Source: an uncultured Gammaproteobacteria bacterium (GTDB lineage Bacteria > Patescibacteriota > Microgenomatia > UBA10105 > UBA927). Taken from it: a stretch of DNA of 64,000 nt. Below the pieces are notes generated by a model. The model was not told where the DNA came from, made no database searches, and saw nothing but the letters and a program-made list of their open reading frames with translations. The position numbers were made by a program, and so were the translations under genes. Of this stretch, positions 1 to 18,897 are shown in pieces; positions within the stretch are counted from its first letter, which is position 1; each line of letters begins with the position of its first letter. Location: positions 36,815 to 100,814 of the forward strand of contig CAZNKB010000003.1 of the NCBI GenBank assembly GCA_964573695.1. The letters run 5' to 3'.

Positions 1-3000
1 ACCGGTGATATGTCCGTAGGGGCATGGGTCAAGCGGAGCGCATCAGGCACTGATGTCGATGTAATTGCGGCAGATTGGGGCAACGCTATTGGAGACCAAG
101 AATTCCGCCTGTATTTTGATGCGACGGATTTTCCAACGTTTCAAACAACCGACGGGACATCCACGACGACAAGTGTAAGCCCTACGGCTATAACCGATAC
201 CAACTGGCACCATATCACCGCTCAGTTCAATAATAGCACCGCAAACATACAGTATCTCTATGTTGACGGGAGACTGGTCGACTCCGATACTGCATCATCA
301 ACAGATCAACCCAATAATACAGTGGCGTTTACTATAGGGGCAGACCTGTCCGGGGCAGCAAATACAGCGGCCAACTTTTTCCGCGGCACCATAGACGAAG
401 TCTATTACGACAGAGAAGGTCTTGACCCTTCTTATATCCGGCGCATATATGAATCCGGATACCGCGCGTTACAAAATCACACGTCAAGCCGTATTACCGG
501 TATATCCGGAGCAGATAATTATCAACGACTTCTCGGAAACGCGTCGGGTGGTACCGCTGCAAGCAACAATGCAACAAGTATCGCTATCGACGACACCCGC
601 CGGTTTATCTACGCCGGATTGCATGACGCCACTACCAATACCGGAGGCGTTACCGTTATCGCAGAAGAAGCGGATACTGCTATCGATCTATTTGACAGTA
701 CCGCTAACACCAGCAAAGACGATGACATCGGTACCCAATTTTCGGCAAATGACGTCGTTTCTATCTCGCTTTCCGGCAGTCCGTGTCCCGGATACAACGG
801 CGGATCCACAACCTGTAATAACTCCGCAACGCTAGCAATCGCAGGAACAAACGATTCTGCCACCAGGGTATGGATGGAAACCAGCACAGTGTCTATAGCG
901 GACGCACTAAGTCTTTTGGGCTCTACAAGCCTTACCAAAAATATCGCAAATATTACCAGCGTGCTACAGGTATACGATGTATACAATCGAAACGATGATG
1001 ACGCAACGGGTGGAGAACACCAAGTCCCAGCCCTGAAGGTCGACAGCACCGGCATGTTCACGTATAACTATTTAAATACTCAAACATCATCGGTTGCTAT
1101 GGACATTAACGACAGTACCCATACATCCGGAACTGTCATTGATATTAGTGGCTCTGCAATCAACTCTGGGGAAGGTATAAATCTATCTACAAACGCACTT
1201 ACTACCGGTCGTGGACTCTTAATAACTTCATCGGCTACAGGATGTACTAGTTGTGCACTCGAGCTCATCACCCACTCCGGTAGCAATGCAAACAATACCG
1301 GATATTTACTGCAATTGGCAAACACCGGGACATTAAACGCAAATACGTCATTCTATATCCAACACTATGCTACAGGGACCAATAACCTCGCCATGCGAAT
1401 AGATGACGAGAGCGCTGACACGACTCCGTTTGCCATAGACGGCTTGGGCAATGTCGGTATCGGCGACAGCAGCCCGGATTATACCCTGGAACTCTACGAC
1501 CCAACCAACACACCGGTTATCGTATTGTCTGACGATGATATCGCACAAGGATTTACTACAGATGTCGCTGCCACAGACGCATTCCTCCATATCTCTTCCA
1601 TATCAACAACAGCTGGAGGAGCTCAATTTACAGGCCTATCAAGCGGTGATGCACAAGCTTTTTCCATACGCGGTGGAATCGACAGTTCAACCCCGGCCAA
1701 CACAACCCCAGCGATTAAAATCATCGGGGGTAAACTTAGCGGCACGACATTCGGAGATCTCGATGTAGATTCTACACAAGGTGGCACCAATGCGGAAACG
1801 GTCTTCCAAATTGCCAACAACGATGACACAGCGAGCTTCACCATGCTCGGCAATGGCAACATAGGTATTGGCAACCAGGTGACTCCCCTTGCCAAACTCC
1901 ATGTCATCTCAAACCCGCTCGCAGCCCTTTATACAACCGGCAGGGCCGCAGCCATATTCGACCAATTTGAAAACCAGGATATTATCGCCGCCTCCGCCTC
2001 AGGGGTGACGAAGCTTCGGGTCACCAATACGTCCGACGTCATCGCAGAACGGTTTGTCGACCTGGGTAACACCTCCGGAACGTTTTATATCGACCCGGCA
2101 AATGGCACGACATCCATAGTTGTAGACGGAGCTATCATAAGCGACGGCGCTTTTAGCATCACATCAAATGGCACGAATGGTAATGTGACCATTAGCGCAG
2201 GCACCGGAGACGTCATTCTGGGAACTGCCGACAGCACCGGAGCAGAAGTATGTGTCAGCCTAGACGGCTCGACGTGTACCGGCAAGATCGATGCCGCGAC
2301 GTTTGATCCTCCCTATACGATCAATGACAAAAACTATGCCACCTACGCACCAAGCATGACGGGCATCAAAGAAGAAACAGTAGGAACTATCCAGACATCT
2401 ACGTATGTAGCGGGTATCGGATACAAGACAGAGATTGACTTTACCGATCTTCCCATAGGATCAGACCTCTGGCTGTTCTCACGGACGACGGACCTCAAAA
2501 CCAATGCGGACCAACTCGTCGTGCTGTTGTCTCCGGCCTCATCTGCGCGTGTATGGTACAGTTTTGATCCGGACGCTCTTATTCTCACCATGTATTCTTC
2601 GCGGCCGACCAGTGTTTCGTACCGGCTTACGGCTCCCCGCTTCGACTGGCAGCAATGGGCCAACACGCGCGCAGATGACGATCGGCGAGGTATGACGCTT
2701 AACTATGACAACGCCTGGTTTACCGGCAGCGGATCGGCCGCGGCTCCCGAAGATCCGCTTGCTCATCTTACGATCGAGCCCGTAGACGAAAGCACATTGC
2801 AGTTTAGGATCCGCCATGAAAACGGCGACATCATAGAAGAAGCGACCAGTTTTGCCCGGCTGCTCGTCGCTAATGTGCAAACGGGAGCAATCCGCAGTAT
2901 CAACGGCATATTCGGAAAAGTAGTGATCACCGAGTCTATAACATCCCCGGTAGCGCAAATAGATTCGGTACGTACCAATTCCATTTCACCTATCGCAACG

Positions 3001-4194
3001 GAATCCGGACAAATCACTGTCAATCTAAATCAAACACAATCATTCGGAATCAAAAATACGGATACAAATACCGTAACCACGACGTTTGATGCACTGGGGA
3101 ACGCGACACTCTCCGGCACACTCACGACAGAAAACCTCAACATAAACGGTGACGCGACGGTTGCGGGAGCATTAACCAGCACATCGGTAACCACGGAAGA
3201 TGCCCACCTTGACTCGCTATCGGCGAGGCAGGCATCCGTATCCGGTCAATTATATGCAGACCGCATTGTCACCAACTTCGGCGACCTGGACACCCGGTTC
3301 CAAACCATAGAGCAATCGATCGATTCTATAAGCACACAATCTGCCATAGCCTACACAAACCCAACACCTTCTACGAGTCCGGCTGCCGATTACGGAGGAG
3401 CAATTTCCCTGTCCGGAGGCGATGTCGTCGTCAACACGAATCTCTTTGTATTGGGCGACAGCTTGCTTTCCAGAACCTCAATTACAGGGTCGTTGCTCGT
3501 CGACGGCGTTATTCGCTTCGCAGAAAATGTCATAGAAACCATTTCGGAAACCCTATATATCCAAAAAAACAAACTCGCGTCTGTCGATATCCTCGACGGC
3601 ACGATTATCGCCGACATATGGAACCGGGTATTCGTCCGGGGCACACTGGGTATTTCAGGCAATACAACGATCGGAGGCGTCCTCGGAGCATCAACGCTGT
3701 CTCCGATTACCGGTAGTAACCTGACTATTGATTTGAATCAGTCCATCCCGGATCCTTTCGCATTACAGCAAGCTACCCCCTCATCCGGATTTGCTGACCT
3801 AGTCATCAAAGGCATAAACAACCAAACCGTCGCAACGATAAACGCATCCGGAAGCGCGACGTTTACCGGAACTGTTGCCGCTGATATGCTTGTAGCGAGC
3901 GGATCAGCAACGGTAAGCAAACTCAATATCAGCACGGGTGATGTGGCGGCATCTACGGACTCCGCTATCCCTTCCAGCTCTGTAGGTACTGGCCTATTGC
4001 CCGCAAACTTTACCGAAATCACCGTACTCTCCAATCAGATTGCAGCCGATTCACTGGTATACCTGACCCCGCTATCGAGTACGGGAAACCAAGTGATTTA
4101 TGTGAAGGAAAAACTGCCGGGCGTCGGATTCATCGTGGCAATTGATTCCTCCTTATCTATACCCATAAACTTCAATTGGTGGATTATCAATTAA
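1..4194 (+). CDS. 3' portion (1394 aa, N-terminus off-window) of a giant surface/fibre protein: LamG/concanavalin-A-like domain followed by ~1250 aa Thr/Ser/Asn/Gly-rich low-hydrophobicity region
   Basis: Frame is open to nt 1, so the ORF is truncated at its 5' end. The N-terminal ~140 aa carry LamG-type motifs (NWHHITAQF, LYVDG, FRGTIDEVYY). The same motifs recur in the downstream DUF2341-LamG gene. The remainder is extremely T/S/G/N-rich, with repeated GN(V/I)GIG motifs and few hydrophobic residues. Confidence 0.6.
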   Translation, partial: TGDMSVGAWVKRSASGTDVDVIAADWGNAIGDQEFRLYFDATDFPTFQTTDGTSTTTSVSPTAITDTNWHHITAQFNNSTANIQYLYVDGRLVDSDTASSTDQPNNTVAFTIGADLSGAANTAANFFRGTIDEVYYDREGLDPSYIRRIYESGYRALQNHTSSRITGISGADNYQRLLGNASGGTAASNNATSIAIDDTRRFIYAGLHDATTNTGGVTVIAEEADTAIDLFDSTANTSKDDDIGTQFSANDVVSISLSGSPCPGYNGGSTTCNNSATLAIAGTNDSATRVWMETSTVSIADALSLLGSTSLTKNIANITSVLQVYDVYNRNDDDATGGEHQVPALKVDSTGMFTYNYLNTQTSSVAMDINDSTHTSGTVIDISGSAINSGEGINLSTNALTTGRGLLITSSATGCTSCALELITHSGSNANNTGYLLQLANTGTLNANTSFYIQHYATGTNNLAMRIDDESADTTPFAIDGLGNVGIGDSSPDYTLELYDPTNTPVIVLSDDDIAQGFTTDVAATDAFLHISSISTTAGGAQFTGLSSGDAQAFSIRGGIDSSTPANTTPAIKIIGGKLSGTTFGDLDVDSTQGGTNAETVFQIANNDDTASFTMLGNGNIGIGNQVTPLAKLHVISNPLAALYTTGRAAAIFDQFENQDIIAASASGVTKLRVTNTSDVIAERFVDLGNTSGTFYIDPANGTTSIVVDGAIISDGAFSITSNGTNGNVTISAGTGDVILGTADSTGAEVCVSLDGSTCTGKIDAATFDPPYTINDKNYATYAPSMTGIKEETVGTIQTSTYVAGIGYKTEIDFTDLPIGSDLWLFSRTTDLKTNADQLVVLLSPASSARVWYSFDPDALILTMYSSRPTSVSYRLTAPRFDWQQWANTRADDDRRGMTLNYDNAWFTGSGSAAAPEDPLAHLTIEPVDESTLQFRIRHENGDIIEEATSFARLLVANVQTGAIRSINGIFGKVVITESITSPVAQIDSVRTNSISPIATESGQITVNLNQTQSFGIKNTDTNTVTTTFDALGNATLSGTLTTENLNINGDATVAGALTSTSVTTEDAHLDSLSARQASVSGQLYADRIVTNFGDLDTRFQTIEQSIDSISTQSAIAYTNPTPSTSPAADYGGAISLSGGDVVVNTNLFVLGDSLLSRTSITGSLLVDGVIRFAENVIETISETLYIQKNKLASVDILDGTIIADIWNRVFVRGTLGISGNTTIGGVLGASTLSPITGSNLTIDLNQSIPDPFALQQATPSSGFADLVIKGINNQTVATINASGSATFTGTVAADMLVASGSATVSKLNISTGDVAASTDSAIPSSSVGTGLLPANFTEITVLSNQIAADSLVYLTPLSSTGNQVIYVKEKLPGVGFIVAIDSSLSIPINFNWWIIN

Positions 4195-4366: not shown

Positions 4367-4912
4367 ATGAAATCATCGAAGAATCAGGCTACCACAGGGC
4401 AAGTCACATCTGCATTTGTTGCTATTGTCGTTATTATAGGCGCAAGCGTCTTTGTCTGGTTTAGGATGCAGCGCCAGAACATACAGGAAAAAGCAGGTCT
4501 GCCCACGCAAGTAGAAGCACAGCCGACTGCTATCCCCACGCCAACGCCGACTCCCACGAAATTATTCCATGGCAAAGACACCTATATAGTCAGTCGCGGA
4601 TCCCAAGCCAAAGGGCCAAATATTTCAGAAATCACATTTGATCCGTTGGATCCGGCAGTAGGCGCACAACAAATCATTTCCGTAAAAGTCAGTCACAACA
4701 ATCCCGTGACAGACGTCACGGTCAAACTGCGCACCGACACCAAAACCACCACGCTCAAGTTAAACCGCTCAGAGGGCACGGAGTTGGGCGGCACATGGCA
4801 AACCACCTGGACTATTCCGGAAAGTTACCTGTATAACTATGCAGCAACAGTGGTTGCCAGTGCGGGCAAGGAAGAAACATCCATTCCGATCATTATCCGG
4901 GAACGAAAATGA
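4367..4912 (+). CDS. small membrane-anchored hypothetical protein (N-terminal TM helix, PTPTPTPT linker, ~110 aa extracytoplasmic domain)
   Basis: 181-aa ORF. The TM segment is VTSAFVAIVVIIGASVFVWF and is followed by a Pro-Thr linker. Its stop overlaps the start of the next gene by 4 nt. Confidence 0.5.
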   Translation: MKSSKNQATTGQVTSAFVAIVVIIGASVFVWFRMQRQNIQEKAGLPTQVEAQPTAIPTPTPTPTKLFHGKDTYIVSRGSQAKGPNISEITFDPLDPAVGAQQIISVKVSHNNPVTDVTVKLRTDTKTTTLKLNRSEGTELGGTWQTTWTIPESYLYNYAATVVASAGKEETSIPIIIRERK

Positions 4913-5706
4913 AAAAATCGACACAGTCTATAGGATTTACCGTATTATTGCTCTTGAGTTTGAGTGTTGGTGCGCGTGAAGCACAGGCAGCCTGCAATTG
5001 GAGCCCAAGCGCAGGAAGTGTTACCGCCACAACATGCGGTATCGACGGACAATCAGAAGAAGCGTATGATTATTCTTCGGGAACGGATGACTCTACGAAC
5101 GGACTCACGCTTACCATTCCCAACGGAGTCACCGTTACCCTCAACACCGGTTCTGTGGGTACACCCACGACGCTCTATGTCGGGGCTATAAATCTCACTG
5201 GAACAGGATCTCTTGTGGCTTCTGCAAACTACGTGCAGATCAAAAGCGGATTCCGATGCTATGTGACCGATGCTGACGGCGACGGATACAGTCCAACCCC
5301 CAATGTATGTTCTTCAACAAGTGGTGCTGGGAAAATCCGCAAATTCTCATCAGGGTTCCATACGGGAGTTGACTGTGGAGACGGAAATAGCGCCGCTAAT
5401 CCAGGTCAGACTGTTGCCCAGTCAACGACATTTACCAATACCGCCACCGGGTTAAGCGGTGATTGGAATTGTAATGGCGCGGAAACGAAAACATACGCTA
5501 CAGCCACATATACCTGTAGCGCGTGCACCAACGGATCAGGGTATGCGAGTTTCCAAAATACCACAAACGGATTCCAAACGTCCGTACCGGCATGCGGAGT
5601 AGCAGGCACATACTATACGGTAACCAATGCAACGTGTGTAGATCCCGCTGTTGCAAACTGTGCAGCAAGTGCTACTACCTCCAGCGTTACACAAACCTGT
5701 CTGTAA
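4909..5706 (+). CDS. secreted Cys/Gly/Thr-rich hypothetical protein with signal peptide
   Basis: N-terminus MKKSTQSIGFTVLLLLSLSVGAREAQA is a typical Sec signal peptide. The mature part has many Cys and DxDGDG-like motifs. The start overlaps the upstream stop (ATGA). Confidence 0.5.
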   Translation: MKKSTQSIGFTVLLLLSLSVGAREAQAACNWSPSAGSVTATTCGIDGQSEEAYDYSSGTDDSTNGLTLTIPNGVTVTLNTGSVGTPTTLYVGAINLTGTGSLVASANYVQIKSGFRCYVTDADGDGYSPTPNVCSSTSGAGKIRKFSSGFHTGVDCGDGNSAANPGQTVAQSTTFTNTATGLSGDWNCNGAETKTYATATYTCSACTNGSGYASFQNTTNGFQTSVPACGVAGTYYTVTNATCVDPAVANCAASATTSSVTQTCL

Positions 5707-6424
5707 ATCATTGCGAGCGAATCCCCACGGGCGTGTATAACAACTTGGCTACTGTCGTAGATTTCTCATCGGAACGATCCAGTATAATCTCATCGTGGCT
5801 CATAAACTATGCGCTTGTTTATTCATATTAAGCACCTCACCCGTAAATAGCCATACATGGGCGCACACAACCACATGTAGACCCTTTCTATGAATACTAC
5901 CAATCCATATATACACGATAAACAAATCCAGCTCATGGTCACCCCTACGCGGGTAAACGTTTACAAAGGTACATGTGCTTCCCTCCTTCTGTTATCTCAA
6001 GTTTGATGCATGTCACGGACTCTAAATAAACGAACCAAAACCGTTCGGCCATAGAACAAAAATGTGTCATTACAATATGTCTATAGGATATATATTTAGG
6101 TACATATATCCCTGTACACACCATATATCCATTTATCCCGTTCTAGCAGCAAAGTATATACTCATGAAAAATCTTATTAGAACAATCCAAACTCACTCAA
6201 TGACGATCTATTATCCAAAATAGGCCTATAATTAGAATATAAAATACCTATAGTATAGCCTCGATATGCTAATTTTGAGAGTGATAATTTGACACATTTC
6301 TCGTAAGGTTCTGTAATAGTAATAGGCCTATGATTTTTACCGAGCAAACCCATGCAAACTCTAGTCATTTGAGGCTAATAAGCAACCTTCTTTCGCATAG
6401 CTTCCCATTCACATACACACCGTC

Positions 6425-9400
6425 ATGACATTGAGCCCAACTGATAAATTATATACTATAAGCCAAGCTTCAAAACGTCTTGGTGTCTCAATAAGCACAC
6501 TCCGCCGGTGGATAAAATTACACAAAATTGATGTGATTACTGATGCCCAAGGCATCCATGTTTTTAACGAATCCGCACTACAAAAAATCCAAACCATTAC
6601 TCCGGTTGTTTCACCACTATTACCAGATGTCGATGCATTGTCCCCCGCTCAAGCGGCAAAAGCATTGGGAATTTCAACGTGGACATTGCTTCGTTGGGAA
6701 AAAGCCGGATTGATCGTCAGTTCACGTACGCCAGGAGGAGCTCGCCGATTTCAAAAAGACGCAGTAGCTTCCCTACTCAGTAAACGAACCACATATCAGC
6801 GAGTTCCTTCGGAAACACCCCGGGTAAATAGAGTAAACCAGGTAGCCGACAAAAACGTAAGCAGTAACGTGCATCCAATAATAGCTACATCAAAATATAC
6901 TGAAACATATCAAAAAATACCCTCATATTCACAGCCGCCACATCGTAATTCGTTATATTTTATCCTTGTTATTCTTATTTTTTTGCTATGTAGCGGTATT
7001 ATTGGACTCCAAATTGCCGGCATGCAATCGAGCAAACAAACAGTACCGACACAAGCGACAAGCGGTGCCACGACTATAGACCAAAACATCATACAAACGA
7101 TCGTCGCTCAGGTTACAAAAATTATTGAATCCAATAGTTCGACGTCTATATCCGGACGCGACGGTATAGACGGCGCTACGGGTGCAACAGGACCACATGG
7201 CACAAATGGTGCAAACGGTTCAAATGGTACAAACGGCACCAATGGTGAGTTAGGTCCAATCGGTCCGACAGGAAGCACCGGGACGGGTGGAGGCGGCGGA
7301 GACGGACCAAGTGGAGCAACTGGAGCAACAGGATCTGGTGGTGTCGTTGGTCCTACCGGCTCTACTGGTGCGACGGGAGGAATAGGAGCAAGTGGCCCCA
7401 CGGGATCAACGGGGGCGACGGGAGGAAATGGACCCACAGGTGCTACCGGTGGAACGGGTATATCGGGAGCAGGAGGAGATGGACCAACCGGACCGACAGG
7501 TGCAAATGGTCCGACTGGTTCTACTGGTGCTACTGGTGGTGTTGGAGCATCTGGACCAACAGGATCAACAGGCGCAACCGGTAATGTTGGTACCTCAGGG
7601 CCAACCGGCTCAACTGGAGCAACAGGAGGAATTGGTGCAAGTGGTCCGACGGGAAGTACTGGTGCTACTGGTGGTGTTGGAGCATCTGGACCAACAGGTT
7701 CGACTGGGGCGACTGGAACAGCCGGAGCAAATGGTCCGACTGGAAGCACTGGGAGCACGGGATTAAATGGTTCATCAGGCCCAACGGGAAGCACGGGTGC
7801 CACTGGATTTCAAGGGGCATCAGGTCCTACTGGCTCCACCGGAGCAACAGGGGCAGTTGGCTCTTCAGGTCCAACAGGTTCGACTGGGGCAACAGGAGTT
7901 GACGGTCCAACGGGAAGTACTGGTGCCACAGGTGGTGTTGGAGCAAATGGTCCCACCGGAAGTACGGGTGCCACTGGATTTCAAGGGGCATCAGGTCCAA
8001 CAGGATCAACAGGCGCAACCGGTAGCATTGGTTCATCTGGCCCAACAGGAGTTACTGGAGCGACGGGAAGTATCGGTTCTTCTGGTCCAACTGGAAGTAC
8101 GGGTGCAACTGGAGCGACGGGAATACAAGGGTCTTCAGGACCGACAGGTAGTACCGGAGCGACTGGTGGAATTGGAGCAAGTGGTCCGACTGGTTCCACA
8201 GGAGCAACTGGCAGCATTGGAGCTTCTGGTCCTACTGGCTCTACTGGTGCAACTGGGAGTGTAGGTGCATCAGGCCCGACGGGTAGTACCGGTGCCACTG
8301 GTGGAATTGGAGCATCCGGTCCAACAGGAAGCACAGGTTCCACGGGAGCAACAGGCAGCATTGGAGCTTCTGGTCCTACTGGCTCTACTGGTGTAACTGG
8401 AGGCGTTGGAACAAGTGGCCCAACGGGTAGTACGGGAGCCACTGGAGGCATCGGGGCATCCGGTCCAACAGGAAGCACAGGTTCCACGGGAGCAACAGGA
8501 GGTATTGGCGCCTCTGGTCCGACGGGGGCTACAGGAGCCACTGGTGGAATTGGAGCAAGTGGTCCGACTGGTTCCACAGGGGCGACAGGTGGAATAGGTA
8601 TTTCTGGCCCAACCGGATCCACAGGGGCTACTGGTGGAATTGGTGCATCTGGACCGACGGGATCTACTGGAACAACAGGTGCCCAAGGTCCCACCGGCGC
8701 CACAGGAAGCACTGGTAGTATCGGGGCATCTGGCCCAACCGGATCCACTGGAGCAACCGGGAGTGCTGGCGTGTCTGGCCCAACCGGATCCACAGGGGCT
8801 ACTGGTGGAATTGGTGCATCTGGACCTACTGGTAGCACCGGAGCAACTGGTGGAATTGGAGCAAGTGGTCCGACTGGTTCGACAGGAGCAACAGGATTTG
8901 CAGGCCCTACCGGCTCAACGGGAACAACCGGTGTTCAAGGTCCGACGGGCCCTGTGGGACCAGGAGGAGAAACTCTCTTAAATTACACCGGCAGCGGTGA
9001 AACTGCATTTTTATACAACAACACAACGTACACATATGATTTCGCGACGCAAGACTTAATCTTAGGATACAGTGGGGTCGATGGTGCTGATATCACGACA
9101 CAAGACACGAACGAAAACCTAACCATTGATCCAAATGGAACTGGAACGATATATTTTCATGGCACTGCAGTACAGTTTGATAGCGATGGATCAATCACAC
9201 AAACAGCGACAGATACGACAACGGTTGCCTATTCATTACTTGCAAACAGCTTATCTTCAGGAACAGGCCTTTCGTTGACATCCACATCTACAAGCTTTTC
9301 TACAGGAAAACTTGCAAACATCGACTGGTCGCCAGGAAGTGCTACAACTGCAACTGGCGATCTTGTTCGAATCAACATCGGACCAAATGGAACCGTGGGC

Positions 9401-11263
9401 AATCTATTCAATGTCACTGACAATGCGTCAACACTTTTTAGTGTATCCGAAACACAAATCACCTCTGCCCTCCCCCACCAATTCACGGCAGCTGGGGACG
9501 TGGCAGTCGCTTACGACCTGATATTCACCAATCAAACGTCAAGTGGCATCAAATCATATGGCCCACTCACCATAGAATCCGGCGAATCATTTGAATCAAA
9601 TAACCTTATCCTCAAATCCTACAATAGCGGTAATCTGGTATTAGATATTGCCTCAGCGATTATCGATATAAACACCTCAAAATCACTCACGTTTACCAAT
9701 GCAAACAGCCCATTTGGAAGCGCTCTAGTCGCTGGCGCATTCATCGACACCAATTCTCGATTGACAGAAGAATTCAACATGGACACACAAAATTCAGCAA
9801 TCACTGCAGATAGCGCAGCTATTGGAGATGATGCATCCTGGTATTTCGATACTACAGACGTTTCATCAACATACTCAACTCCAACAGATACGGTAAACGG
9901 CATATCAAGACTTACCTTTGGCACCACCACAGGAGTTGGAGGTCTTATCGGTTTTGGCGGAGATACCGCCGCAAATGACTTAAATAGCATATTCCTGAAA
10001 GCAAACTTGCCGATCGTTGAAATGAAACTTCGCACAAATATAAACAACACAACAAACGACATCGTTTGGGGTATTACCGATCAGGCCACTGCACCAACGG
10101 TCAACGATACGCTTCCGGCAAACGGCATATTCTTCTGGCACAACAATACGACGACTTGGACAGGCTATGTTCGAAGCGGATCTGCAAATGTGGGCACGGC
10201 TACATGCACCGGTGGAGCGGTCAGCACGACACAATTTGCGTTGGGCCGTATTGAGGTGCTGAGTGCCACGTCAGTGCGGTTCCTCATGGACTATGATGTG
10301 TCAGATGGTGTTAATTTTATAGACTGCGGAACCGTTTCCGGAGCCAATCCTACCGCTGCTCTTGGTGCGACTGTCTATAACGTGCACACCGAAACGACCG
10401 GCTCACGAACCGTCGATGTCGATTTCTTCCGTGTATGGCAAGACGATGCAGTGGTACTAAGCCAAGATATCCTGCAGCAAGATATCGCCATAGAAGCAGG
10501 CCAAAAAATAGACGTCCGCGGAGAAGTTCACTTCACCGATGACCCCAATAATCCAGGGTTTTACCGCTTGATGGACAAAAACGGACTGCACATCAATGCT
10601 GTCTATATCGAAGATATACAAAGCAAGAGTCTTTCAGAGAAATTCAAAAACATTGATGCCGCCATCGCGTCGCAAAGTGGCAGTCTCGCTGTATCAGGCA
10701 CAGCCACGACATTCATTGATGGTATCCGGGAATTTTTATCAGAAATTCGGTTCAGCAATCTTGTACAATTTGTTGCTGATGTGGTGTTTCACGCAAACGT
10801 CGGCATAGGAGGAAAACTCACAGTAAACAAAGAGGCCACATTCAGTGGCCAACTCACATTCCCGGATAATATGGCCGGAAGCGCGGTAATCTCCAAATAC
10901 ACCCAATCGGTTGACGTGGTTTTTGATCACCCATTTAACACAACGCCAGTGGTCACTATTTCGCAGGTAATCACGAATGCCACGGATAGCGCATTTTTAT
11001 CCGAAGGATTTAATGCAGGAGTATCCAACATTACACCCAACGGATTTACCATATCCTTAGATACACTTGCCATACGGAATTATACATACAACTGGATTGC
11101 CGTATCTGTCAGCAATACACACCAAACAGTGTCGAGTTCCCCGCTTATGGATATTCTCGGTGTTGAGGATCAGCTGAGTGCAACGCCGTCAGGATCAACT
11201 GAATCAACAAGCTCTGGTATTCCAAACGAAAGCACACCCTCCGGGTGGTTAGATGCACAATAA
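6425..11263 (+). CDS. 1612-aa collagen-like triple-helix-repeat protein: two N-terminal MerR/excisionase-type HTH domains, one TM helix, ~600 aa G-X-Y repeats, C-terminal H-type-lectin-like domain
   Basis: HTH 1 is [22 protein letters not shown] and HTH 2 is [26 protein letters not shown]. The TM helix is [23 protein letters not shown]. About 200 uninterrupted [16 protein letters not shown] triplets follow. The C-terminal segment [20 protein letters not shown]...GFTISLDT...YNWIAV resembles the H-type lectin fold. Confidence 0.7.
7150..8965. repeat. ~1.8 kb of near-identical 9/18/27-nt tandem repeats encoding the collagen-like G-X-Y region
   Basis: Visible periodic DNA ggtccgactgg(a/t)agcac(t/g)gg(t/a)gc(a/t)ac(t/a)gg... 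Antisense ORFs with PVGP repeats are artefacts of this repeat. Confidence 0.85.
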
Positions 11264-11265
11264 CT

Positions 11266-14200
11266 ATGATAAAACGACGCAGTACAAAGATATGGAAAAA
11301 ATCGCTCGCAATCCTTCTTTGCGCGCTCATACTCGTTGTCGGCATTCGACTCATATGGTTTAGACCGGAACAAATTGAGGCCGCCTGGTACAACGATACC
11401 TGGGGATTTCGGGTAAAACTCACGATCGATCATACGAAAGTTGCTGCAGACCAGACAGATTTTCCTGTCTACGTGGATCTGTCAAAACTACCTGCAATCT
11501 TTCATGCTCATGTCAATCAGACCGATGGACGAGATATTCGCGTTACCACAGCCAATGGATCGACTGAACTACCTCGCGAAGTGGTCTTTTATGATGCAAC
11601 GTCAAACAAAGGCGAATTACATTTTAAATACACAGGAACACTTTCATCATCAACAGACACAAGCGTTTATATCTATTTTGGAAATGCAGGTGCAAGCGAC
11701 TATGCAGCTAGCGACACCTATGGGAAAAATAATGTGTGGGATAGTAGTTTTTCCGGTATACACCATCTCCAAAATAACAGCTTTGCCGATTCTACCTCAG
11801 GGGCACATAACGGCACCAACAATGGCACAACCAACACATCGGGTAAGGCAGGAGATGGACGACTCATTGATGCGAACGGTGAATATTTTTCGGTGCCACT
11901 ATCGGGATATATACATACATCAGTTGGTACGGTAGATTGGTGGTACAAAAATACTGTCTCCTCTGCAAACTTTTTAAGTTTTTGGGGCTCTAATGAGGGA
12001 GACAATCAATTTCAATTTCAACGTAGTACGCTAGACACTAGTCTAGATTTTATTGTCAATTCTAGTGGTGCAAACTGGACCTCTCTAGCAAAAAATGTTT
12101 TTGATGGTTCCTGGCATCATATAGCCGTTGTGTACGATACCACAAATAACACACAGGACTTGTATATTGATAGCGTTGCGCAAACACAAAATATAGAGAA
12201 TCACACAGATATCGATATTTCCACCTACGCCCTCCTTATAGGTGAGAATGGTGCAGGGGGAGGAAACAACGCCAGAGGGGTCATCGATGAATTTAGGGTA
12301 TCAAATAATCTTAAACGGAGCAGCACATGGATCACGACCGAATACAATAATCAAAGTAGTCCCACCACGTTTTTTACCACAGGGGCAACAGAACAGAGAA
12401 AGTCAGCAGTTCTCAATCTGGCCTTTGACGAAGGGTACGGAACAACCGTCAATGATTCTTCATCCAATGGATATACTGGCACCCTCAGTGGCGCTACAAC
12501 GCCTTCCTGGCAATCTGAAAGTCAATGTATTTCCGGCAAATGCCTCTATTATCAAGGCTCCACTGCCTATACAAGCATTGGAACATCGGTGCCAAACGTT
12601 CAGTCTGTTTCGTTTTGGGTAAAGCCGAAGACAAACGCAGAAACACTCGTGGATTTTGACGGTGGCACACATTATATTTCTGCGTCAGCTGGCACCATTA
12701 CCGCCACCGGCTTTTCATCCTCTACTATTTACGTAAATGGAAAATCAGGAAATACATTAACTGCTAACGCATGGCAGCACATAGAAGTCACGACCGCCAC
12801 AGCGTTTACCGCCTCAGCGATAACCATTGGCAAACAATCCACCAATTATCTTAATGGGTTTATTGATGAATTTACGCTGTATGATTATGCCCGATCTTCG
12901 TCTCAAGTAAAACTAGATTTTACATCCAGATCTTCTCGGTCCGGCGTGGGTGCCCGTTTCGGTCCCGATACGGGAAACACGCTTTCCAACGGACTCGTGG
13001 GGTACTGGAAAATGGATGAAGCCGCATGGGGTACGCCAAATTGCTCAACGGACGTTACCATGGATTCATCTGGCAATGGAGCAAACGGCGACGCATGTCC
13101 TACTTCAACTGGACCAGTCGGGGGAAATGTGGGCAAATTCGGAAAAGCAGTAGCCTTTGATGGAAGTGACGACTATATCCCTATCAACGGGTCTACTGTA
13201 TATGCAACAATGAATTCTCCATTTAGTGCAAGCGCATGGGTTAATTTAACTGACTTTAGCACATCAAATTATCCAGTTGTTATCGCTTTGCGAAGCGATG
13301 ATACCGACCCATGGTTTATTATTTTGTCCAATCAAACTAACTTCTTAGGAGTCAGTATTGGAAATGATAACTCATTCGCAGGGATAAAAACTGACACTCC
13401 GACGGCGAGTTTAACCGGCGCGTGGCATCATATAGCTGTTTCATATAATGGTCAAGGCTCGGGAGCCATGACCAACTTCAAAATATATCTTGATGGACAA
13501 CTACAAACAAACATCGCGTCTGGAACCTATGCGAGTCACTCACAAACCACGTCCATTGGGTATAACGGCGGAGGAAATCGTTGGTACGGATCTATCGATG
13601 AGGTACGCGTGTACAACAGAGCCCTCTCCACATCAGACGTGAATCAGTTATACAATTGGGCTCCAGGACCAATCGGATATTGGAAAATGGACGAAAACAC
13701 GGGAACAACGATTTACGACACGAGCGGAAACGGATATAACGGCACATTTCAGGATAGCCTAACAAAAGCAGATTGGAAAAATGGAAAATACGGCTCTGCC
13801 GTCTCATTTGTAGGCGCAAACAAATCTATTTTGGCTCTACATAGTACCGGATTTGATTTTGGAACATCTACAAAGTTTACCGTGGGAACATGGGTTAAAG
13901 TAACGGCCGATACCGGATCTCAACAATCATTAATTAATCCAACTGGCGTTGTATCAGCAGGCTTTGAATTATACACGGGAAGTGACGGTAAACTTCGTGC
14001 AGCTATCGGAAGCGGCACATATTGTTCCATACGGAATACTGGCGTGACCCTTGAAGACAACAATTGGCATTATGTCGAAGCAGTATTTAACAGGGGGTCC
14101 GGTTGCACAACAGCAAGCACACAAATATATATTGACGGCAAGCTAGAACCAACTTCAGTTGCGGACAGTAGCGGCGGTGCCGACGCAAACATAGACATGG

Positions 14201-16464
14201 GTGGAATCAAATTCACGTCATCGTCCACGAACGACTCTGTTGTTTTGGACAATGTTATTATATATAACTACGCCCGTACGCCGGGTCAAATTATAGAAGA
14301 TATGAACGCCGGGCATCCGGCTCCCGGCTCCCCCATTGGCTCCTACGTCGCATATTGGAAGTTTGACGAGGGAGCGCTGAATACCTGCTCTGGAGGAACC
14401 AATGACTTTTGCGATTCGAGCGTAAACGCCAATGATCTGGCTGCTCCACCTACTACGACCATACTAACGAACGCCGGAAAATTTGGCAAAGCGTTTAATG
14501 CAAGTGGAGCAGTTTTGGCAACAAGAGCAGATGACAGTGACTTCGATTTTGCCGCGGCTGACGATCTATCCATGAGCATGTGGCTATACGCCAGTGCCGC
14601 CGATAAACCGACTTCCGGCAATGTCCAATATGTCTATACCAAAGGGGGTATTGTCGCTGCCGGGACAGTTGGCTATATTCTCTATACAAACTCTAGTGGT
14701 AATGTTTCCTTTGCCATACGCTCAACCTCAGGCAACTGGGTGGCAACTCCTCCTGCTGAACCCACATCCGACGATAAAGTTACCTCTACTACTGATTTGT
14801 ACGACAGTACATGGCACCATATCGTCGTGACAAAAACGGGAACCTCGCGAATTGATCTTTTTGTAGACGGAAAACTGAACGCGTCCGATACGAGTCTGAC
14901 CGCAACAGGGACGCTAGAGAACGCTGTCACTAGTAGGTTTGCAGATAGAAACGAGACCAACGACGGAGATGAATTTGTCGGAAAAATAGATGAAATGAAA
15001 ATATACCGCTTGGCACTGAATACCGATCAGGTCAAGGTGGAATACAATCATGGCTTCCAAAACCAATTAGGCGCTCTTTCCACCGACGCTTCAAATAATC
15101 CCTCCAATTCCGCCACCGACGAATATTGTCCTCCGGGCCAAGGATCTGATTGCACTGCGCCAGTCGGGCACTGGAAATTAGATGAAAACACTGGCACATC
15201 AACAGTGTACGATTCAAGTGGAAATGGAAGAGACGGCACAATGACAAACATAAGTGAAGATGATTGGGCTACAGGAAAACTCGGGTCAGGTATTAATTTT
15301 GATAACGCAAATGATTATGTCAATATTGCCGACAATGATGCGTTTTCCGCAAATACGACCAATCAACTTACCGTCGAAGCCTGGGTATATCTTGACGCGC
15401 TCGGTATTACCCAAGAAATCGTCAATAAAGGAGCTGCTTCTAACTACGAATGGGCAATCCGGATAAATACTGACGGCAACACACTTGCATACTTATATCA
15501 ATCGGGTGGAGGTACATACATGGTTACACCATTTGCTTTGGCGGCTGCGACCAATACATGGTATCACCTTGCGTTGGTTGCAGATGTAAGCATCCCCTCT
15601 TTAAAATTATTTATTAACGGAAAATTTGCGGCGGAGGATACGACTGCTTCGGGATCGTATACCAACGGCACTGCCGCGGTACGGATTGGTGATCGGGTAG
15701 ACGGTATTACAGATGTGGATGGTACCGTAGATGATGTGCGAATATACAACTACGCCCGCACCCCTGCTCAAATTGCCTGGGACTACAACCGCGGCGGACC
15801 GGTTGGATGGTGGAAATTGGATGAAAACACGGGAACTGCTGCCAATGATTCCATGGGCAATAGTACAGCTGGAACGCTCACCAACACGCCTACGTGGGCA
15901 ACCGGAAAATTGAATCAGGCGATATCATTTGCAGGTAGCAACCAACATGTGTTGATTGGAGATGATCCTGATTTTGATTTTGCCGATGATGAAAACATGA
16001 CCCTCACGGCTTGGTTTAAACACACAACTGCATCCACGCAGGAGGTTATTTTGTCAAAATACGCCGCAGCCGGATATAAAATTATCATGGAATCCGACGG
16101 GGATATAACATGTGGATTAGACTATGACGCTACGTGGACACCAACAGATTCGGTAACTTCAACACTCGCTACCTACGATGATGATAATTGGCACCATATT
16201 GCCTGTATAAAAACTGGTGCAACCAGTTTAGAACTATATATTGACGGTATATTGATAACAACGGATTCATCAATTACAGCGACGAACACACTAACAAATG
16301 CGGATCCAATATATTTAGGAATTGACGCCGATGGCACATCAAATGATTTTACTGGAACAGTAGATGACGTCAGAATCTACAGATATCCACTCACCCCTCA
16401 ACAAATCAAAACCGTTATGGGAGAAAGTGCGGTTCGATTCGGCCCGTTAACTGGGTCGCCGTAA
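11266..16464 (+). CDS. ~1730-aa giant surface protein: N-terminal TM anchor, DUF2341-like domain, then 5-6 LamG/concanavalin-A-like lectin repeats
   Basis: The ATG at 11266 lies immediately after the upstream stop, and a GTG at 11245 is an alternative start. The TM is LAILLCALILVVGIRLIWF. The DUF2341-like segment is WGFRVKLTIDH...DFPVYVDL...DIRV...YIYFGN. Repeated modules carry (Y/W)WK(M/L)DE...G...D.SGNG..G and WHHIA...LYIDG...IDE(F/V)R(V/I)YN motifs. Confidence 0.7.
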   Translation: MIKRRSTKIWKKSLAILLCALILVVGIRLIWFRPEQIEAAWYNDTWGFRVKLTIDHTKVAADQTDFPVYVDLSKLPAIFHAHVNQTDGRDIRVTTANGSTELPREVVFYDATSNKGELHFKYTGTLSSSTDTSVYIYFGNAGASDYAASDTYGKNNVWDSSFSGIHHLQNNSFADSTSGAHNGTNNGTTNTSGKAGDGRLIDANGEYFSVPLSGYIHTSVGTVDWWYKNTVSSANFLSFWGSNEGDNQFQFQRSTLDTSLDFIVNSSGANWTSLAKNVFDGSWHHIAVVYDTTNNTQDLYIDSVAQTQNIENHTDIDISTYALLIGENGAGGGNNARGVIDEFRVSNNLKRSSTWITTEYNNQSSPTTFFTTGATEQRKSAVLNLAFDEGYGTTVNDSSSNGYTGTLSGATTPSWQSESQCISGKCLYYQGSTAYTSIGTSVPNVQSVSFWVKPKTNAETLVDFDGGTHYISASAGTITATGFSSSTIYVNGKSGNTLTANAWQHIEVTTATAFTASAITIGKQSTNYLNGFIDEFTLYDYARSSSQVKLDFTSRSSRSGVGARFGPDTGNTLSNGLVGYWKMDEAAWGTPNCSTDVTMDSSGNGANGDACPTSTGPVGGNVGKFGKAVAFDGSDDYIPINGSTVYATMNSPFSASAWVNLTDFSTSNYPVVIALRSDDTDPWFIILSNQTNFLGVSIGNDNSFAGIKTDTPTASLTGAWHHIAVSYNGQGSGAMTNFKIYLDGQLQTNIASGTYASHSQTTSIGYNGGGNRWYGSIDEVRVYNRALSTSDVNQLYNWAPGPIGYWKMDENTGTTIYDTSGNGYNGTFQDSLTKADWKNGKYGSAVSFVGANKSILALHSTGFDFGTSTKFTVGTWVKVTADTGSQQSLINPTGVVSAGFELYTGSDGKLRAAIGSGTYCSIRNTGVTLEDNNWHYVEAVFNRGSGCTTASTQIYIDGKLEPTSVADSSGGADANIDMGGIKFTSSSTNDSVVLDNVIIYNYARTPGQIIEDMNAGHPAPGSPIGSYVAYWKFDEGALNTCSGGTNDFCDSSVNANDLAAPPTTTILTNAGKFGKAFNASGAVLATRADDSDFDFAAADDLSMSMWLYASAADKPTSGNVQYVYTKGGIVAAGTVGYILYTNSSGNVSFAIRSTSGNWVATPPAEPTSDDKVTSTTDLYDSTWHHIVVTKTGTSRIDLFVDGKLNASDTSLTATGTLENAVTSRFADRNETNDGDEFVGKIDEMKIYRLALNTDQVKVEYNHGFQNQLGALSTDASNNPSNSATDEYCPPGQGSDCTAPVGHWKLDENTGTSTVYDSSGNGRDGTMTNISEDDWATGKLGSGINFDNANDYVNIADNDAFSANTTNQLTVEAWVYLDALGITQEIVNKGAASNYEWAIRINTDGNTLAYLYQSGGGTYMVTPFALAAATNTWYHLALVADVSIPSLKLFINGKFAAEDTTASGSYTNGTAAVRIGDRVDGITDVDGTVDDVRIYNYARTPAQIAWDYNRGGPVGWWKLDENTGTAANDSMGNSTAGTLTNTPTWATGKLNQAISFAGSNQHVLIGDDPDFDFADDENMTLTAWFKHTTASTQEVILSKYAAAGYKIIMESDGDITCGLDYDATWTPTDSVTSTLATYDDDNWHHIACIKTGATSLELYIDGILITTDSSITATNTLTNADPIYLGIDADGTSNDFTGTVDDVRIYRYPLTPQQIKTVMGESAVRFGPLTGSP

Positions 16465-17044: not shown

Positions 17045-17566
17045 CTACTCCGAACACACAGCATAATCCGTGCCGGATAATCCGCTGCACTTCGTACCAC
17101 ATCGCGACCAAGACGCACCGATTTCGCTATCAGATGCGTTTTCAAGAGACGCCTTGAGGCAAAAATCATCCCCTGCGTTTACCTGATAATAAAACATACT
17201 ACTCCCTAATTCTCCGGGGAATTTGGTCATGTACACGGTGTCGCAGCCGGTCGCTCCCGCGGCAAATGCCACCGAACACGTAGCGGGGCAAAGCGTCGAC
17301 GCATTGGATCCGCACCCTGCGATGTAATTAAGTTTACCGACGCCCCCGTTTGCGGCGTCAGGATAGACCTTATAATCATTGTAATACAACTGTAAGGCTG
17401 TCTTAAGTTGATTCAATTCTCCCTTTCGTCTCGCATCACGCGCTCTGCTTCTGGCTCCCAAAAAATTTGGTAACGCCAATCCGATGATAGTGGCAATCAC
17501 CGCAATACTCACAAGCAATTCTATTAACGTAAATGCATCAATATGTTTTTTAGTATTATTTTTCAT
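17045..17566 (-). CDS. type IV pilin/pseudopilin-like protein (class III signal, N-methylation motif)
   Basis: From an internal Met the leader is MKNNTKKHIDA|FTLIELLVSIAVIATIIGLALP (prepilin cleavage / FTLIE motif), followed by ...LQLYYND... Confidence 0.65.
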   Translation of the reverse strand: MKNNTKKHIDAFTLIELLVSIAVIATIIGLALPNFLGARSRARDARRKGELNQLKTALQLYYNDYKVYPDAANGGVGKLNYIAGCGSNASTLCPATCSVAFAAGATGCDTVYMTKFPGELGSSMFYYQVNAGDDFCLKASLENASDSEIGASWSRCGTKCSGLSGTDYAVCSE

Positions 17567-17589
17567 ATATTTATATATATAAGTATATA

Positions 17590-18108
17590 TTAAGGACTCG
17601 CATCTCCGCTTGCTATACCGTAGGTACATTCAATGGTACTATCGGTGCTGCAATTGGTGCCGGTATATCCATTCTGATCCACGCCGTCACCGGCATCGTT
17701 TGTATTTTCTAATTTCGCGTATATTTTAAAATTTGTACCGCTGGTCGATACATAATAATATGTTTGCGTACTTATAGGATCCGAGGGAAGAAGCACCATG
17801 TAGAGTGTACTATACTGATCGCGAAAGGCGCCACCCCAGGAACATGCCTGCGCATCAAGCGCTCCGCATCCCATCATGACACCTGCGGAACCGACCGGGT
17901 ACTGCCCCTTGTCATTATAATAGGCCTCAAGCGCCGTCACCAGACTCCGTAAATCGTTTTTCCGCCGGTTGTCACGGCCTCTTCGCGAACTGGACGCATA
18001 TGAACCAGTCGCGATAGCGACCAAAATACTCATAATCACCATGACGATCAGGAGCTCCATAAGCGTGAAACCTGATTGCTTATTTTTTGACTGCCAAAGA
18101 CGTTTCAT
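17590..18108 (-). CDS. type IV pilin-like protein
   Basis: Leader MKRLWQSKNKQSG|FTLMELLIVMVIMSILVAIATG, followed by ...LEAYYND... Confidence 0.65.
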   Translation of the reverse strand: MKRLWQSKNKQSGFTLMELLIVMVIMSILVAIATGSYASSSRRGRDNRRKNDLRSLVTALEAYYNDKGQYPVGSAGVMMGCGALDAQACSWGGAFRDQYSTLYMVLLPSDPISTQTYYYVSTSGTNFKIYAKLENTNDAGDGVDQNGYTGTNCSTDSTIECTYGIASGDASP

Positions 18109-18125
18109 AATACAAAACCAAAAAC

Positions 18126-18824
18126 TCACTGTGTACACCAATTGCTCGCATCGCCGCATAATCCCAGACAATCGTTTTCTGCCCATGATCTGGGACAACC
18201 AAATGCCGCAGGATCACCGACATTATTACACGTTCCGGGGGCGACAACCTGACCGCCTGAAATAGTGCCAGGTCGACATGCATACGGGCCAGAATACGCC
18301 GGAGTCGGTGTGAGTGTCGGCGTTGGAGTAAGATCAGGGTTAAATCCCGGAGCGGTAACCGTCGTACCGGTAGCCAAGCAATAGTTCCAAAATGCACCCC
18401 AGCCGCATCCAACTTGGGCATCACAACCCAACGTCGTGATATCCGGATCCGACCAATCCTGCAACTTGGCGCAAACCCGATTTCCTATACACAAATTGGT
18501 GTCACTGTCCGGCTGGTACTTATAGGCTTCGTTTGTCGTCGGATCACACGGAATCTTATCGATATACGGAGCTAATCCCGGCCCGTTACAGTTATTAAGA
18601 ATATCCATGGCAGGATAACACCCGTTGTCGTTGTAATATTCTTCATATGCGCGGCGAATATTTGCTATGTCAGCCTTCCGCTGGGCGTCCTGCGCCCGGT
18701 AAATATTCCGTTTCCAGCTTATAAGGAGAAAAATGACAGCAAGTATCGCGATGATCACTACGACGATAAGTAATTCGGCAAGCGTCCAACCGGCTTGAGA
18801 AGATCGTTTGTTGAGAAAACCCAT
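18126..18824 (-). CDS. type IV pilin-like protein with larger Cys-containing C-terminal domain
   Basis: Leader MGFLNKRSSQAG|WTLAELLIVVVIIAILAVIFLL, followed by ...YEEYYNDNGCYP and a C-terminal part with about 10 Cys. The alternative start at 18851 gives a 21-aa leader. Confidence 0.6.
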   Translation of the reverse strand: MGFLNKRSSQAGWTLAELLIVVVIIAILAVIFLLISWKRNIYRAQDAQRKADIANIRRAYEEYYNDNGCYPAMDILNNCNGPGLAPYIDKIPCDPTTNEAYKYQPDSDTNLCIGNRVCAKLQDWSDPDITTLGCDAQVGCGWGAFWNYCLATGTTVTAPGFNPDLTPTPTLTPTPAYSGPYACRPGTISGGQVVAPGTCNNVGDPAAFGCPRSWAENDCLGLCGDASNWCTQ

Positions 18825-18897
18825 GCGGCCTCGGGCAAATAAGCGCTTCATAAGGACAATGCTTATTATAGTATGGCAAAATATTCCCCACAACACA

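Follow-up and report, generated by a model that had tools for sequence, protein, structure and literature searches.

A patescibacterial collagen-lectin fibre carrying tandem MerR-type DNA-binding domains on a single membrane helix, a candidate regulator of its own operon

Why would a bacterium join domains that bind DNA to a long surface fibre in one polypeptide? The question is raised by an open reading frame (ORF) at 6425..11263, on the plus strand of a 64,000-nt window (the whole stretch of DNA analysed here) from contig CAZNKB010000003.1 of the Microgenomates-type patescibacterial assembly GCA_964573695.1. The ORF runs without interruption for 1612 amino acids (aa) and combines two helix-turn-helix (HTH) domains of the MerR type, one transmembrane (TM) helix, a collagen triple-helix region and C-terminal lectin-like domains. 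Our preferred answer, to which we assign a probability of about 0.5, is that this trimeric collagen-lectin adhesin fibre is also a single-pass TM transcription regulator, probably autoregulating its operon. The parts of the protein are listed below, with model confidence as predicted local distance difference test (pLDDT) scores.

6449..6598, plus strand: HTH1 (aa 9-58), a MerR/excisionase-type winged HTH (wHTH) with a divergent wing; Pfam MerR_1/HTH_17, pLDDT >90
6635..6784, plus strand: HTH2 (aa 71-120), a BldC-like minimal MerR-type wHTH; relatives BldC 6AMA/6AMK
6785..6949, plus strand: predicted cytoplasmic linker (aa 121-175); pLDDT 53-59, no secondary structure
6950..7027, plus strand: single TM helix, a signal anchor (aa 176-201); helix with pLDDT up to 96, hydrophobic 19-mer
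7154..8974, plus strand: collagen triple-helix region (aa 244-850); Pfam Collagen PF01391, 205 bits, E 1e-61
8975..9796, plus strand: post-collagen fibre segment (aa 851-1124), including a neck module; poorly modelled as a monomer
9797..10444, plus strand: ConA-like (L-type-lectin-like) beta-sandwich (aa ~1125-1340); pLDDT 70-85, Foldseek
10862..11119, plus strand: H-type lectin domain (aa ~1480-1565; Pfam 1496-1560); PF09458, 32-34 bits against a cut-off of 24, pLDDT 80-90
11120..11263, plus strand: Ser/Thr/Pro-rich C-terminal tail and TAA stop, read from the sequence; the tail is low-confidence and unstructured in the model

The HTH-TM-collagen-lectin architecture is real and not an assembly artefact. 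A sequence-only reading of this DNA had described a single ORF joining the four parts; the frame is indeed open throughout, Pfam and the structural model agree on its domains, and its start codon is backed by homologues that begin at the same position. The same reading had feared that an assembly error had fused two genes. We found the fusion in many independent assemblies, among them contigs of 1.2 Mb and 433 kb: a scan of one genome per species recovered it from at least 10 further species-level genomes of Woesebacteria, Gottesmanbacteria and other Patescibacteria (a few with mislabelled third-party-annotation (TPA) titles), and independent metagenomes have it too, the ORFs being intact at 1279-3115 aa. 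The locus closest to that of the window lies in a Woesebacteria metagenome-assembled genome (MAG). P0002-P0004 and the full-length P0006 (an intact protein of 1279 aa from a groundwater metagenome, with H_lectin at its C-terminal end) are colinear with the query all the way from Met1 into the collagen, a stretch that takes in the two HTHs, a conserved TTYQR.P motif, linker and TM helix. Full ORFs of 2068 aa (L003), 3060 aa (L005, on the 1.2-Mb contig), 3115 aa (L011, on the 433-kb contig) and >3488 aa (L010) likewise have a TM helix at ~180-300 followed by collagen repeats. The HTH-linker-TM-collagen junction is colinear in at least 12 independent loci or proteins, and the fusion is conserved in related genomes.

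Extremely unlikely, then, is the account in which assembly or a frameshift fused a small excisionase or MerR gene to a collagen tail-fibre gene, or in which the ORF is part of a prophage. The ectodomain does match tail-fibre PHROGs and the HTHs do match excisionase families, and collagen repeats do produce assembly and frame errors, as one P0006 gene illustrates: in two assemblies of one groundwater site it is intact in one (L001, 7053-10892, 1279 aa) and split in the other (L004, 10001-13839, 434 + 845 aa), where the repeats were either misassembled or had slipped in a phase-variation-like way. That frameshift, the sole frame break seen, falls inside the collagen repeats and not between HTH and collagen. 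The DNA repeats that underlie the window's collagen region are imperfect (66-84% matches) and so do not represent a recently collapsed or expanded assembly array. Neighbouring genes gave no phage-family matches and encode LamG adhesins, a pilin-like protein and glycan-synthesis enzymes, and the viral contigs scanned contained no family member and neither module. Recurrence in independent genomes, the lack of phage neighbours and the absence of relatives from viral contigs led us to reject both versions of this account.

Do the N-terminal domains look as though they bind DNA? The sequence-only reading had named two MerR/HTH_17-type motifs and worried that they might fail to score as HTHs in profile searches. 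Both stretches, aa 10-58 and 72-121, were matched above curated thresholds by Pfam MerR (57.6 bits, cut-off 28.2), HTH_17 (48.6, cut-off 27) and MerR_1 (44.9, cut-off 21.6), and the excisionase-type NCBIfam model TIGR01764 was matched twice (41.9 bits, cut-off 28.8). Together with matches to BldC in sequence and fold, these scores remove the worry and bear out the tandem. A model of aa 1-230 shows two wHTHs at pLDDT >90, a disordered linker at aa 121-175 and the TM helix. A connector of ~12 residues (aa 59-70) joins HTH1 to HTH2, and the unstructured linker runs from HTH2 to the TM helix. Where classical MerR proteins carry a C-terminal coiled-coil dimerisation helix and an effector domain, no effector-domain match was found in Pfam or NCBIfam.

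Among solved structures, HTH2 comes nearest to the BldC-DNA complexes 6AMA/6AMK (sequence E 3e-6; in Foldseek, TM 0.8 and a root-mean-square deviation of ~1.6 A, range 1.5-1.7, at ~38% identity over ~50 residues). Foldseek also matched RacA, a mycobacteriophage Xis, NmlR and TraN with its internal duplication. A minimal MerR-like protein, BldC has neither coiled coil nor effector domain and binds direct repeats head-to-tail (PMC5859096). Since the window protein scores below the cut-off of the BldC family model and lacks the C-terminal parts of classical MerR proteins, we call the domain BldC-like and not a BldC family member. In the 6AMA alignment, the BldC contacts T27, R30, W31, K33, G44, R47 and R48 correspond to T87, R90, W91, K93, G104, R107 and R108. 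Across the family, in alignments reaching down to ~26% overall identity, T87, E92, R101, G105 and R107 of HTH2 never vary and R90, W91, G104 and R108 hardly ever do; BldC residues H46 and T29 are not kept (A106, L89). HTH1 retains T25, R28, W29 and K31 in its recognition helix, its wing reads D40-x-x-G43-x-H45 without the Arg-Arg pair, and the canonical wing is present in both HTH copies of more distant relatives. The recognition helix itself, STL[RL]RW, is near-identical in the two HTHs. Conservation of the contact residues argues for retained DNA binding, and the kept base-reading Arg (R90/R28) suggests sequence-specific reading.

These residues bear directly on an improbable alternative, that the HTHs bind no DNA and form a cytoplasmic protein-interaction or export-handling module, the promoter being run by another factor. 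RodZ sets the precedent, with an N-terminal HTH, a TM helix and an extracytoplasmic domain in the same layout; its HTH is of the XRE type and binds a protein (MreB), and it carries DUF4115 and no fibre. Proteins with HTH_25 and DUF4115 are counted among TM regulators in the tables of a published survey (PMC10269533). The degenerate wing of HTH1 would suit such a role. The family-invariant residues, however, sit at the DNA-contact positions of MerR and BldC and not on an alternative surface, and neither the RodZ-type HTH_25 nor DUF4115 was detected by Pfam.

The earlier claim of a single TM helix also stands. The segment at aa 176-201 is the sole strongly hydrophobic one in the window protein, and the same is true for 55/55 family members (the window protein among them) in a hydrophobicity script that counted segments after the TM helix. 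The preceding linker opens with TTYQRVP (aa 122-128), a motif kept in close homologues, and linker length ranges from 1 to 176 aa across the family. A second conserved motif, LQI.G...QR..P, lies at the end of the TM helix and just beyond it. Characterised collagen, lectin and tail-fibre domains all lie, to our knowledge, outside the cytoplasm. Because of this, because there is no signal peptide and because the folded N-terminal domain is basic (24 K+R versus 11 D+E), we infer a type-II topology with the N-terminus inside.

Conserved motifs on either side of the membrane invite the suggestion that the protein is a membrane-sequestered, inactive factor, from which shedding of the fibre or tension on it would trigger intramembrane or juxtamembrane cleavage and free the tandem HTH for its boxes and other targets. 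This we consider quite unlikely. The TM helix is indeed flanked by TTYQRVP (cytoplasmic side) and LQI.G..SG.QR..P (outer end) and contains helix-destabilising Ser/Gly, and cleavage-dependent activation is known for CadC-type TM regulators, according to an excerpt of one source (PMC11484849). Set against this, no site-2 or partner protease was identified among the scanned ORFs of the window, the flanking motifs have no known protease assignment, and the many short HTH-only proteins look like contig-end fragments and not like processed products.

Beyond the membrane, the protein is predicted to form a fibre. The sequence-only reading had announced a collagen stalk of ~600 aa, and PF01391 confirms it; a script counted 201 Gly-X-Y triplets in aa 244-850, with just two 2-residue register shifts and Thr at 118/201 Y positions. 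At the textbook rise for collagen of 0.286 nm per residue, the rod would be ~170 nm long. Two P-V-A-P-V-G-P-rich minus-strand ORFs in this region (7108-7803 and 7981-8838) mirror the collagen repeats in antisense and do not merit annotation as genes. Past the collagen lies a neck module (aa ~935-1074, ~9227-9646) that belongs to no Pfam family, carries the motifs AYDLIFTNQ and ESFESNNL, and is 55-78% identical in dozens of otherwise different large Patescibacteria proteins; it is apparently a portable domain that forms a neck or junction in fibres. Homology to the phage tail-fibre families phrog_6320 and phrog_819 covers the post-collagen module as far as aa ~1109, the phrog_6320 match (E 7e-152) coming partly through the collagen repeats. 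The ectodomain is thus tail-fibre-like but chromosomal.

The distal end differs in part from what had been proposed. An H-type-lectin head had been placed at aa 1350-1612; PF09458 does score above its cut-off, at aa ~1480-1565, and a ConA-like beta-sandwich that the sequence-only reading had not described lies upstream at aa ~1125-1340. Foldseek matched the latter in the PDB to ERGIC-53/LMAN1, Emp47p, legume-lectin-like carbohydrate-recognition domains (CRDs) and C-terminal (accessory) domains of GH43 enzymes (E 1e-6 to 1e-5, TM (target) 0.53-0.60), and a Pfam sequence search of the region gave no match. The H-lectin domain is also kept in P0005, P0006 and P0019; a sequence search of this region against the PDB gave no meaningful match. 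Both domains may have lectin activity. An AlphaFold monomer model of aa 881-1612 was poor overall (pLDDT about 51), as expected when one chain of a trimeric fibre is modelled by itself, with the ConA-like and H-lectin domains as its two confident parts; given the chemistry of collagen, the fibre presumably trimerises.

If this protein regulates transcription, where would it bind? Directly upstream of the gene lies an AT-rich non-coding stretch of 718 nt that is strongly conserved, with 75% column identity to L003 and L001, loci whose adjacent protein N-termini are just 50-57% identical to that of the window protein. Indels in this region exclude coding. The conserved region spans 6075-6424 in the window, 6703-7068 in L001 and 3895-4260 in L003, and is found upstream of the L005-L012 genes too; two further clades have the conserved blocks as well, which brings the total to 11 loci from at least three clades. 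The elements are as follows.

6225..6232, plus strand: Box A, CCTATAAT; consensus C[CT][CT]ATAGT in 11 loci
6247..6260, plus strand: Box B, CCTATAGTATAGCC, the most conserved upstream box; C..ATAGT..AGC invariant in 11 loci
6289..6317, plus strand: promoter-like TTGACA - 17 nt - TGTAAT, read from the sequence; TTGAC and TAAT invariant in 11 loci
6344..6359, plus strand: leader direct repeat GCAAAC-N4-GCAAAC with 10-bp periodicity; sole exact match in the window
6220-6229 and 6322-6331, plus strand: palindrome ATAGGCCTAT in two exact copies, 102 bp apart; the sole exact copies in 64 kb

Transcription probably starts from the TTGACA/TGTAAT pair, whose -10 consensus is T[GT]TAAT and whose spacer is 17 nt (18 in one locus). 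Box B, with the consensus C[CT][CT]ATAGT[AT]TAGCC, lies 39 nt from the -35 element (38 in one locus). Box A precedes Box B by 22-24 nt in seven loci and by 34-35 nt in four, a shift of about one helical turn (11 nt). In the leader, the family consensus is [CT]GCAAAC-N4-GCAAAC, and nearly every locus has its CAA[AT] cores at +27 and +37 past the -10; the ATG, by comparison, lies anywhere from 107 to 125 nt beyond the -10. Sites that proteins bind on DNA show just such helical phasing, and a distance that is fixed with respect to the promoter and not to the start codon; the arrangement is operator-like. The first copy of ATAGGCCTAT overlaps Box A and the second lies just past the -10. We rejected this palindrome as a family-wide operator since it is partly shared with the closest relative, L003, alone; it may be a lineage-specific extra operator.

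Each of the 11 family loci has a single copy of the composite of Box B and TTGAC, placed just upstream of the gene every time, and 0/71 other loci have one. Elsewhere in the window there is no composite and Box B alone appears just once, inside an ORF. The box motif CCTATRRT by itself is not significantly enriched in the window (11 observed, 6.7 expected), so only the fixed-spacing composite is specific. A metagenome scan with the loose pattern ATAGTNYAGCYN{20,35}ATTTGAC returned at least 120 chance matches and, among the matches listed, none before an HTH gene or with the -10/leader signature; its value is that of a negative control. Other causes of the conservation were considered and rejected. 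Structured RNA does not explain the leader, where RNAalifold found no consensus and single-sequence z-scores were near 0, and Rfam matched nothing in the window. A small ORF (MIF..., from 6331) and a minus-strand ORF (6177-6368) are both broken by indels, and the peptide is not conserved.

Put together, these parts suggest the following arrangement. Three chains would wind into a ~170-nm Thr-rich triple helix outside the cell, followed by a tail-fibre-like neck and ending in ConA-like and H-type lectin domains, and the fibre would act as a long glycan-binding adhesin, co-expressed with the giant LamG-repeat adhesin encoded downstream. Beneath the membrane, the trimer would present six BldC-like wHTHs on flexible ~55-residue linkers, which would bind the phased direct-repeat boxes of their own promoter and leader. 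A 10-bp direct repeat would be a natural target because the recognition helices are near-identical and the tandem is covalent, and the trimer could bridge more distant boxes. The fibre protein would in this way autoregulate the fibre/LamG operon and physically tether it at the membrane, and occupancy or oligomeric state could respond to outside events such as ligand binding, load or loss. What the sequences establish is the architecture and its conservation, the conserved contact residues and the promoter elements linked to the gene; trimerisation, topology, DNA binding at the boxes and any signalling are inferred. Single-pass TM regulators do act from the membrane (PMC10269533), and an excerpt of another source offers a precedent for membrane-bound regulators that tether secretion-system loci (PMC9977878).

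Several observations weigh against this arrangement. HTH1 lacks the Arg-Arg wing, and the BldC family model NF033787 scored just 37.1 bits for the whole protein and 43.4 for the N-terminal fragment, against a cut-off of 77. The boxes have no obvious likeness to the AATT-containing repeats that BldC prefers. Covariation between recognition helix and boxes was not found, both being nearly invariant, and the boxes could serve another, unlinked regulator; the specificity of the composite, moreover, was gauged over 1.16 Mb, ~20 kb around each locus, and not genome-wide. Flanking charge gives a weak positive-inside signal (K+R 2.5 on the N-terminal side versus 2.0 on the C-terminal side; the N side is richer in 26 proteins and the C side in 12). 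Trimerisation is assumed from collagen chemistry, with the monomer fibre model at a pLDDT of about 51. Finally, a DNA-binding domain beneath a 170-nm fibre may serve purely for anchoring and play no part in signalling.

That last point can be developed into an account of its own, which we regard as unlikely: the HTHs would hold the nucleoid with little or no sequence specificity and fix the base of the fibre, or the chromosome, to the envelope, with no regulatory output. The model would be RacA of Bacillus, a MerR-like wHTH protein that attaches DNA to the envelope at the cell pole and that differs in having no TM helix, acting through DivIVA and bearing no fibre. Cells of the candidate-phyla radiation are very small and their nucleoid is close to the membrane. 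The HTHs have weak NCBIfam and Foldseek matches to RacA, falling far below the cut-offs of the RacA models; the highly variable linker and the diversity of fibre ectodomains on the HTH-TM module, with no recognisable ligand-sensing signalling domain, also fit an anchor. Such an account leaves the precisely spaced, deeply conserved boxes at 11/11 loci unexplained, and the base-reading Arg retained in both HTHs suggests sequence-specific reading.

The neighbourhood looks like that of an adhesin locus.

11266..16464, plus strand: giant Laminin_G_3-repeat protein with an N-terminal TM helix; eight LamG_3 stretches, ATG 2 nt past the stop of the fibre gene

No plus-strand terminator-like site was found at the 11263/11266 junction, and the LamG_3 gene is probably co-transcribed with the fibre gene. 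In L003 and L001, too, the next gene is the LamG_3 one, and there it overlaps the stop codon. LamG giants stand on both sides of the fibre gene (10-4194 and 11266-16464), and the three genes are syntenic in the Woesebacteria locus L003 (201-3881 and 10448-15031); that the downstream gene abuts the stop codon or overlaps it suggests an adhesin operon. For a cultured patescibacterial epibiont, the host-recognition factors proposed are giant membrane proteins that bear adhesion domains, ConA-type ones among them (PMC13059738). Between the upstream LamG giant and the promoter region lie two overlapping small genes (4367-4912 and 4909-5706), of which one encodes a 181-aa TM protein with a weak Big_1-like match and the other a 265-aa Cys-rich secreted protein with no family match. 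Past the adhesin block are three small minus-strand genes (17045-18896), one with an N-terminal methylation motif (type IV pilin-like) and another with a weak match to a PHROG 'pilin'. Further on, a glycan island (18808-62997) holds two Wzy_C/O-antigen-ligase-like genes, several GT2/GT4 glycosyltransferases, two DegT aminotransferases, and radical SAM/SPASM, PMT_2-type and YfhO-like genes; PMT_2 was confirmed at 43310-45025 alone, the adjoining ORFs of ~550 aa (41719-43329 and 45036-46724) lying outside the scan. Enzymes of the island are plausible candidates for glycosylating the Thr-rich collagen.

How widely does the theme extend? An exhaustive profile search with local re-scoring recovered many proteins with one to several MerR-type HTHs, a TM helix at ~80-340 and a long tail; a third, word-indexed search with the N-terminal profile gave just 8 matches and added little. 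Pfam applied to 36 long HTH+TM examples found Collagen in 11, Peptidase_S74 in 6, H_lectin in 2 and Laminin_G_3 in 1, and no domain in the rest. The few members of this wider family whose source is named come from candidate-phyla-radiation lineages and are annotated just as 'excisionase family DNA binding protein' or 'MerR family regulator'. Arrays of at least four MerR-type HTHs occur in P0070 (623 aa; four HTHs, then a TM helix at ~495), P0081 (1015 aa), P0092, P0113 and P0153, which suggests that HTH copy number varies widely across the superfamily. A different build of the HTH-anchored fibre is seen at L002 (2808-7496), where P0042 combines a single HTH and a TM helix with a beta-helix-like fibre that has no collagen, the next gene encodes 586 aa with a Peptidase_S74 chaperone domain, and the composite of Box B and the -35 element is missing. 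The family as a whole suggests that MerR-type HTH and TM modules with various tail-fibre-like ectodomains are a general way to mount fibres on the membrane.

Is such a protein new? By its DNA-binding domain and at least one TM helix in one chain, it belongs to the class of TM regulators. The known examples ToxR, CadC, TcpP and VtrA share its layout of a cytoplasmic DNA-binding domain at the N-terminus, one TM helix and a C-terminal part beyond the membrane (PMC10269533), and regulation from the membrane, with possible tethering of the target locus, is the mode proposed here. They differ in pairing an OmpR/Trans_reg_C domain with a small sensor, where the window protein pairs tandem MerR/BldC wHTHs with a presumably trimeric fibre of ~1400 aa. 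The sequence-only reading had likened the protein to a ToxR-type one-component regulator: in the family sense this fails, with no Trans_reg_C match even at E <= 1 and HTHs that are MerR/BldC-like, and as a membrane-tethered one-component regulator it remains plausible, given the conserved contact residues and an operator-like promoter strictly linked to the gene. 'Unprecedented-looking', its word for the architecture, was too strong. A survey counts 50,302 TM regulators, 56% of them single-pass (MerR 386, MerR_1 350, HTH_17 151), and its domain tables do not include Collagen, H_lectin or Peptidase_S74 (PMC10269533); the architecture itself recurs in bacteria of the candidate-phyla radiation.

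Each module has its own counterparts. BldC of Streptomyces (6AMA/6AMK; PMC5859096) shares a wHTH with neither coiled coil nor effector domain, the contact residues and candidate direct-repeat targets; it is a free 68-residue monomer that oligomerises on DNA, whereas the window protein is tandem, membrane-tethered and probably in threes, with boxes that have no AATT motif. Scl1/Scl2 of Streptococcus, BclA of Bacillus and Lcl of Legionella likewise have long Gly-X-Y surface repeats and a distal globular domain, an adhesin role being expected, and the Thr-rich GPT/GST/GAT triplets of BclA resemble those seen here. The NCBIfam Scl/Lcl equivalogs, which span 405-442 positions against a much longer repeat of ~600 residues in the window protein, scored far below cut-off and through the repeats alone (209 versus 325, 195 versus 500 and 177 versus 400 bits). 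Known bacterial collagen-like adhesins have signal peptides and cell-wall or exosporium anchors. The window protein, in contrast, has no signal peptide, LPXTG or exosporium anchoring, and relies on an N-terminal signal-anchor helix preceded by HTHs. Where the regulator of such an adhesin is known, it is a separate protein, as with PclR and PclA (PMC9276737). Phage tail fibres with collagen (phrog_6320, phrog_819, 'collagen like minor tail') also run from collagen into the homologous fibre module and distal receptor-binding domains; trimerising Peptidase_S74 is found in sister proteins of the window protein, and H_lectin in tail fibres too. The window gene differs in being chromosomal and in having an HTH-TM anchor where the fibres have a baseplate or tail attachment domain. 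In the literature on collagen-like proteins searched together with Patescibacteria, candidate phyla radiation, HTH or TM, no such fusion was described. A collagen/lectin ectodomain on a MerR-type TM regulator is therefore a variation on known classes, neither categorically new nor unique to the window.

Bacteria of the candidate-phyla radiation are thought to live attached to host cells and have few classical signalling systems, and little is known of how they perceive attachment and react to it. One locus that unites a very long adhesin-type fibre, DNA-binding domains and a conserved, precisely spaced promoter offers a concrete hypothesis for how host contact could control genes, one that can be approached without culturing. 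If the autoregulation reading holds, TM transcription regulators would gain a trimeric fibre as a 'sensor' and a tandem BldC-type module, and prokaryotic collagen-like proteins would gain a new mode of anchoring. More tentatively, and with considerable doubt, the protein could be an unrecognised contact sensor of episymbiotic bacteria, in which a trimeric fibre long enough to reach across to a host cell relays ligand or load through three TM helices to six wHTHs that read phased direct repeats at its own promoter, with no kinase, second messenger or separate regulator. If that were true, attachment to a host would act directly on transcription and would hold the adhesin locus at the membrane.

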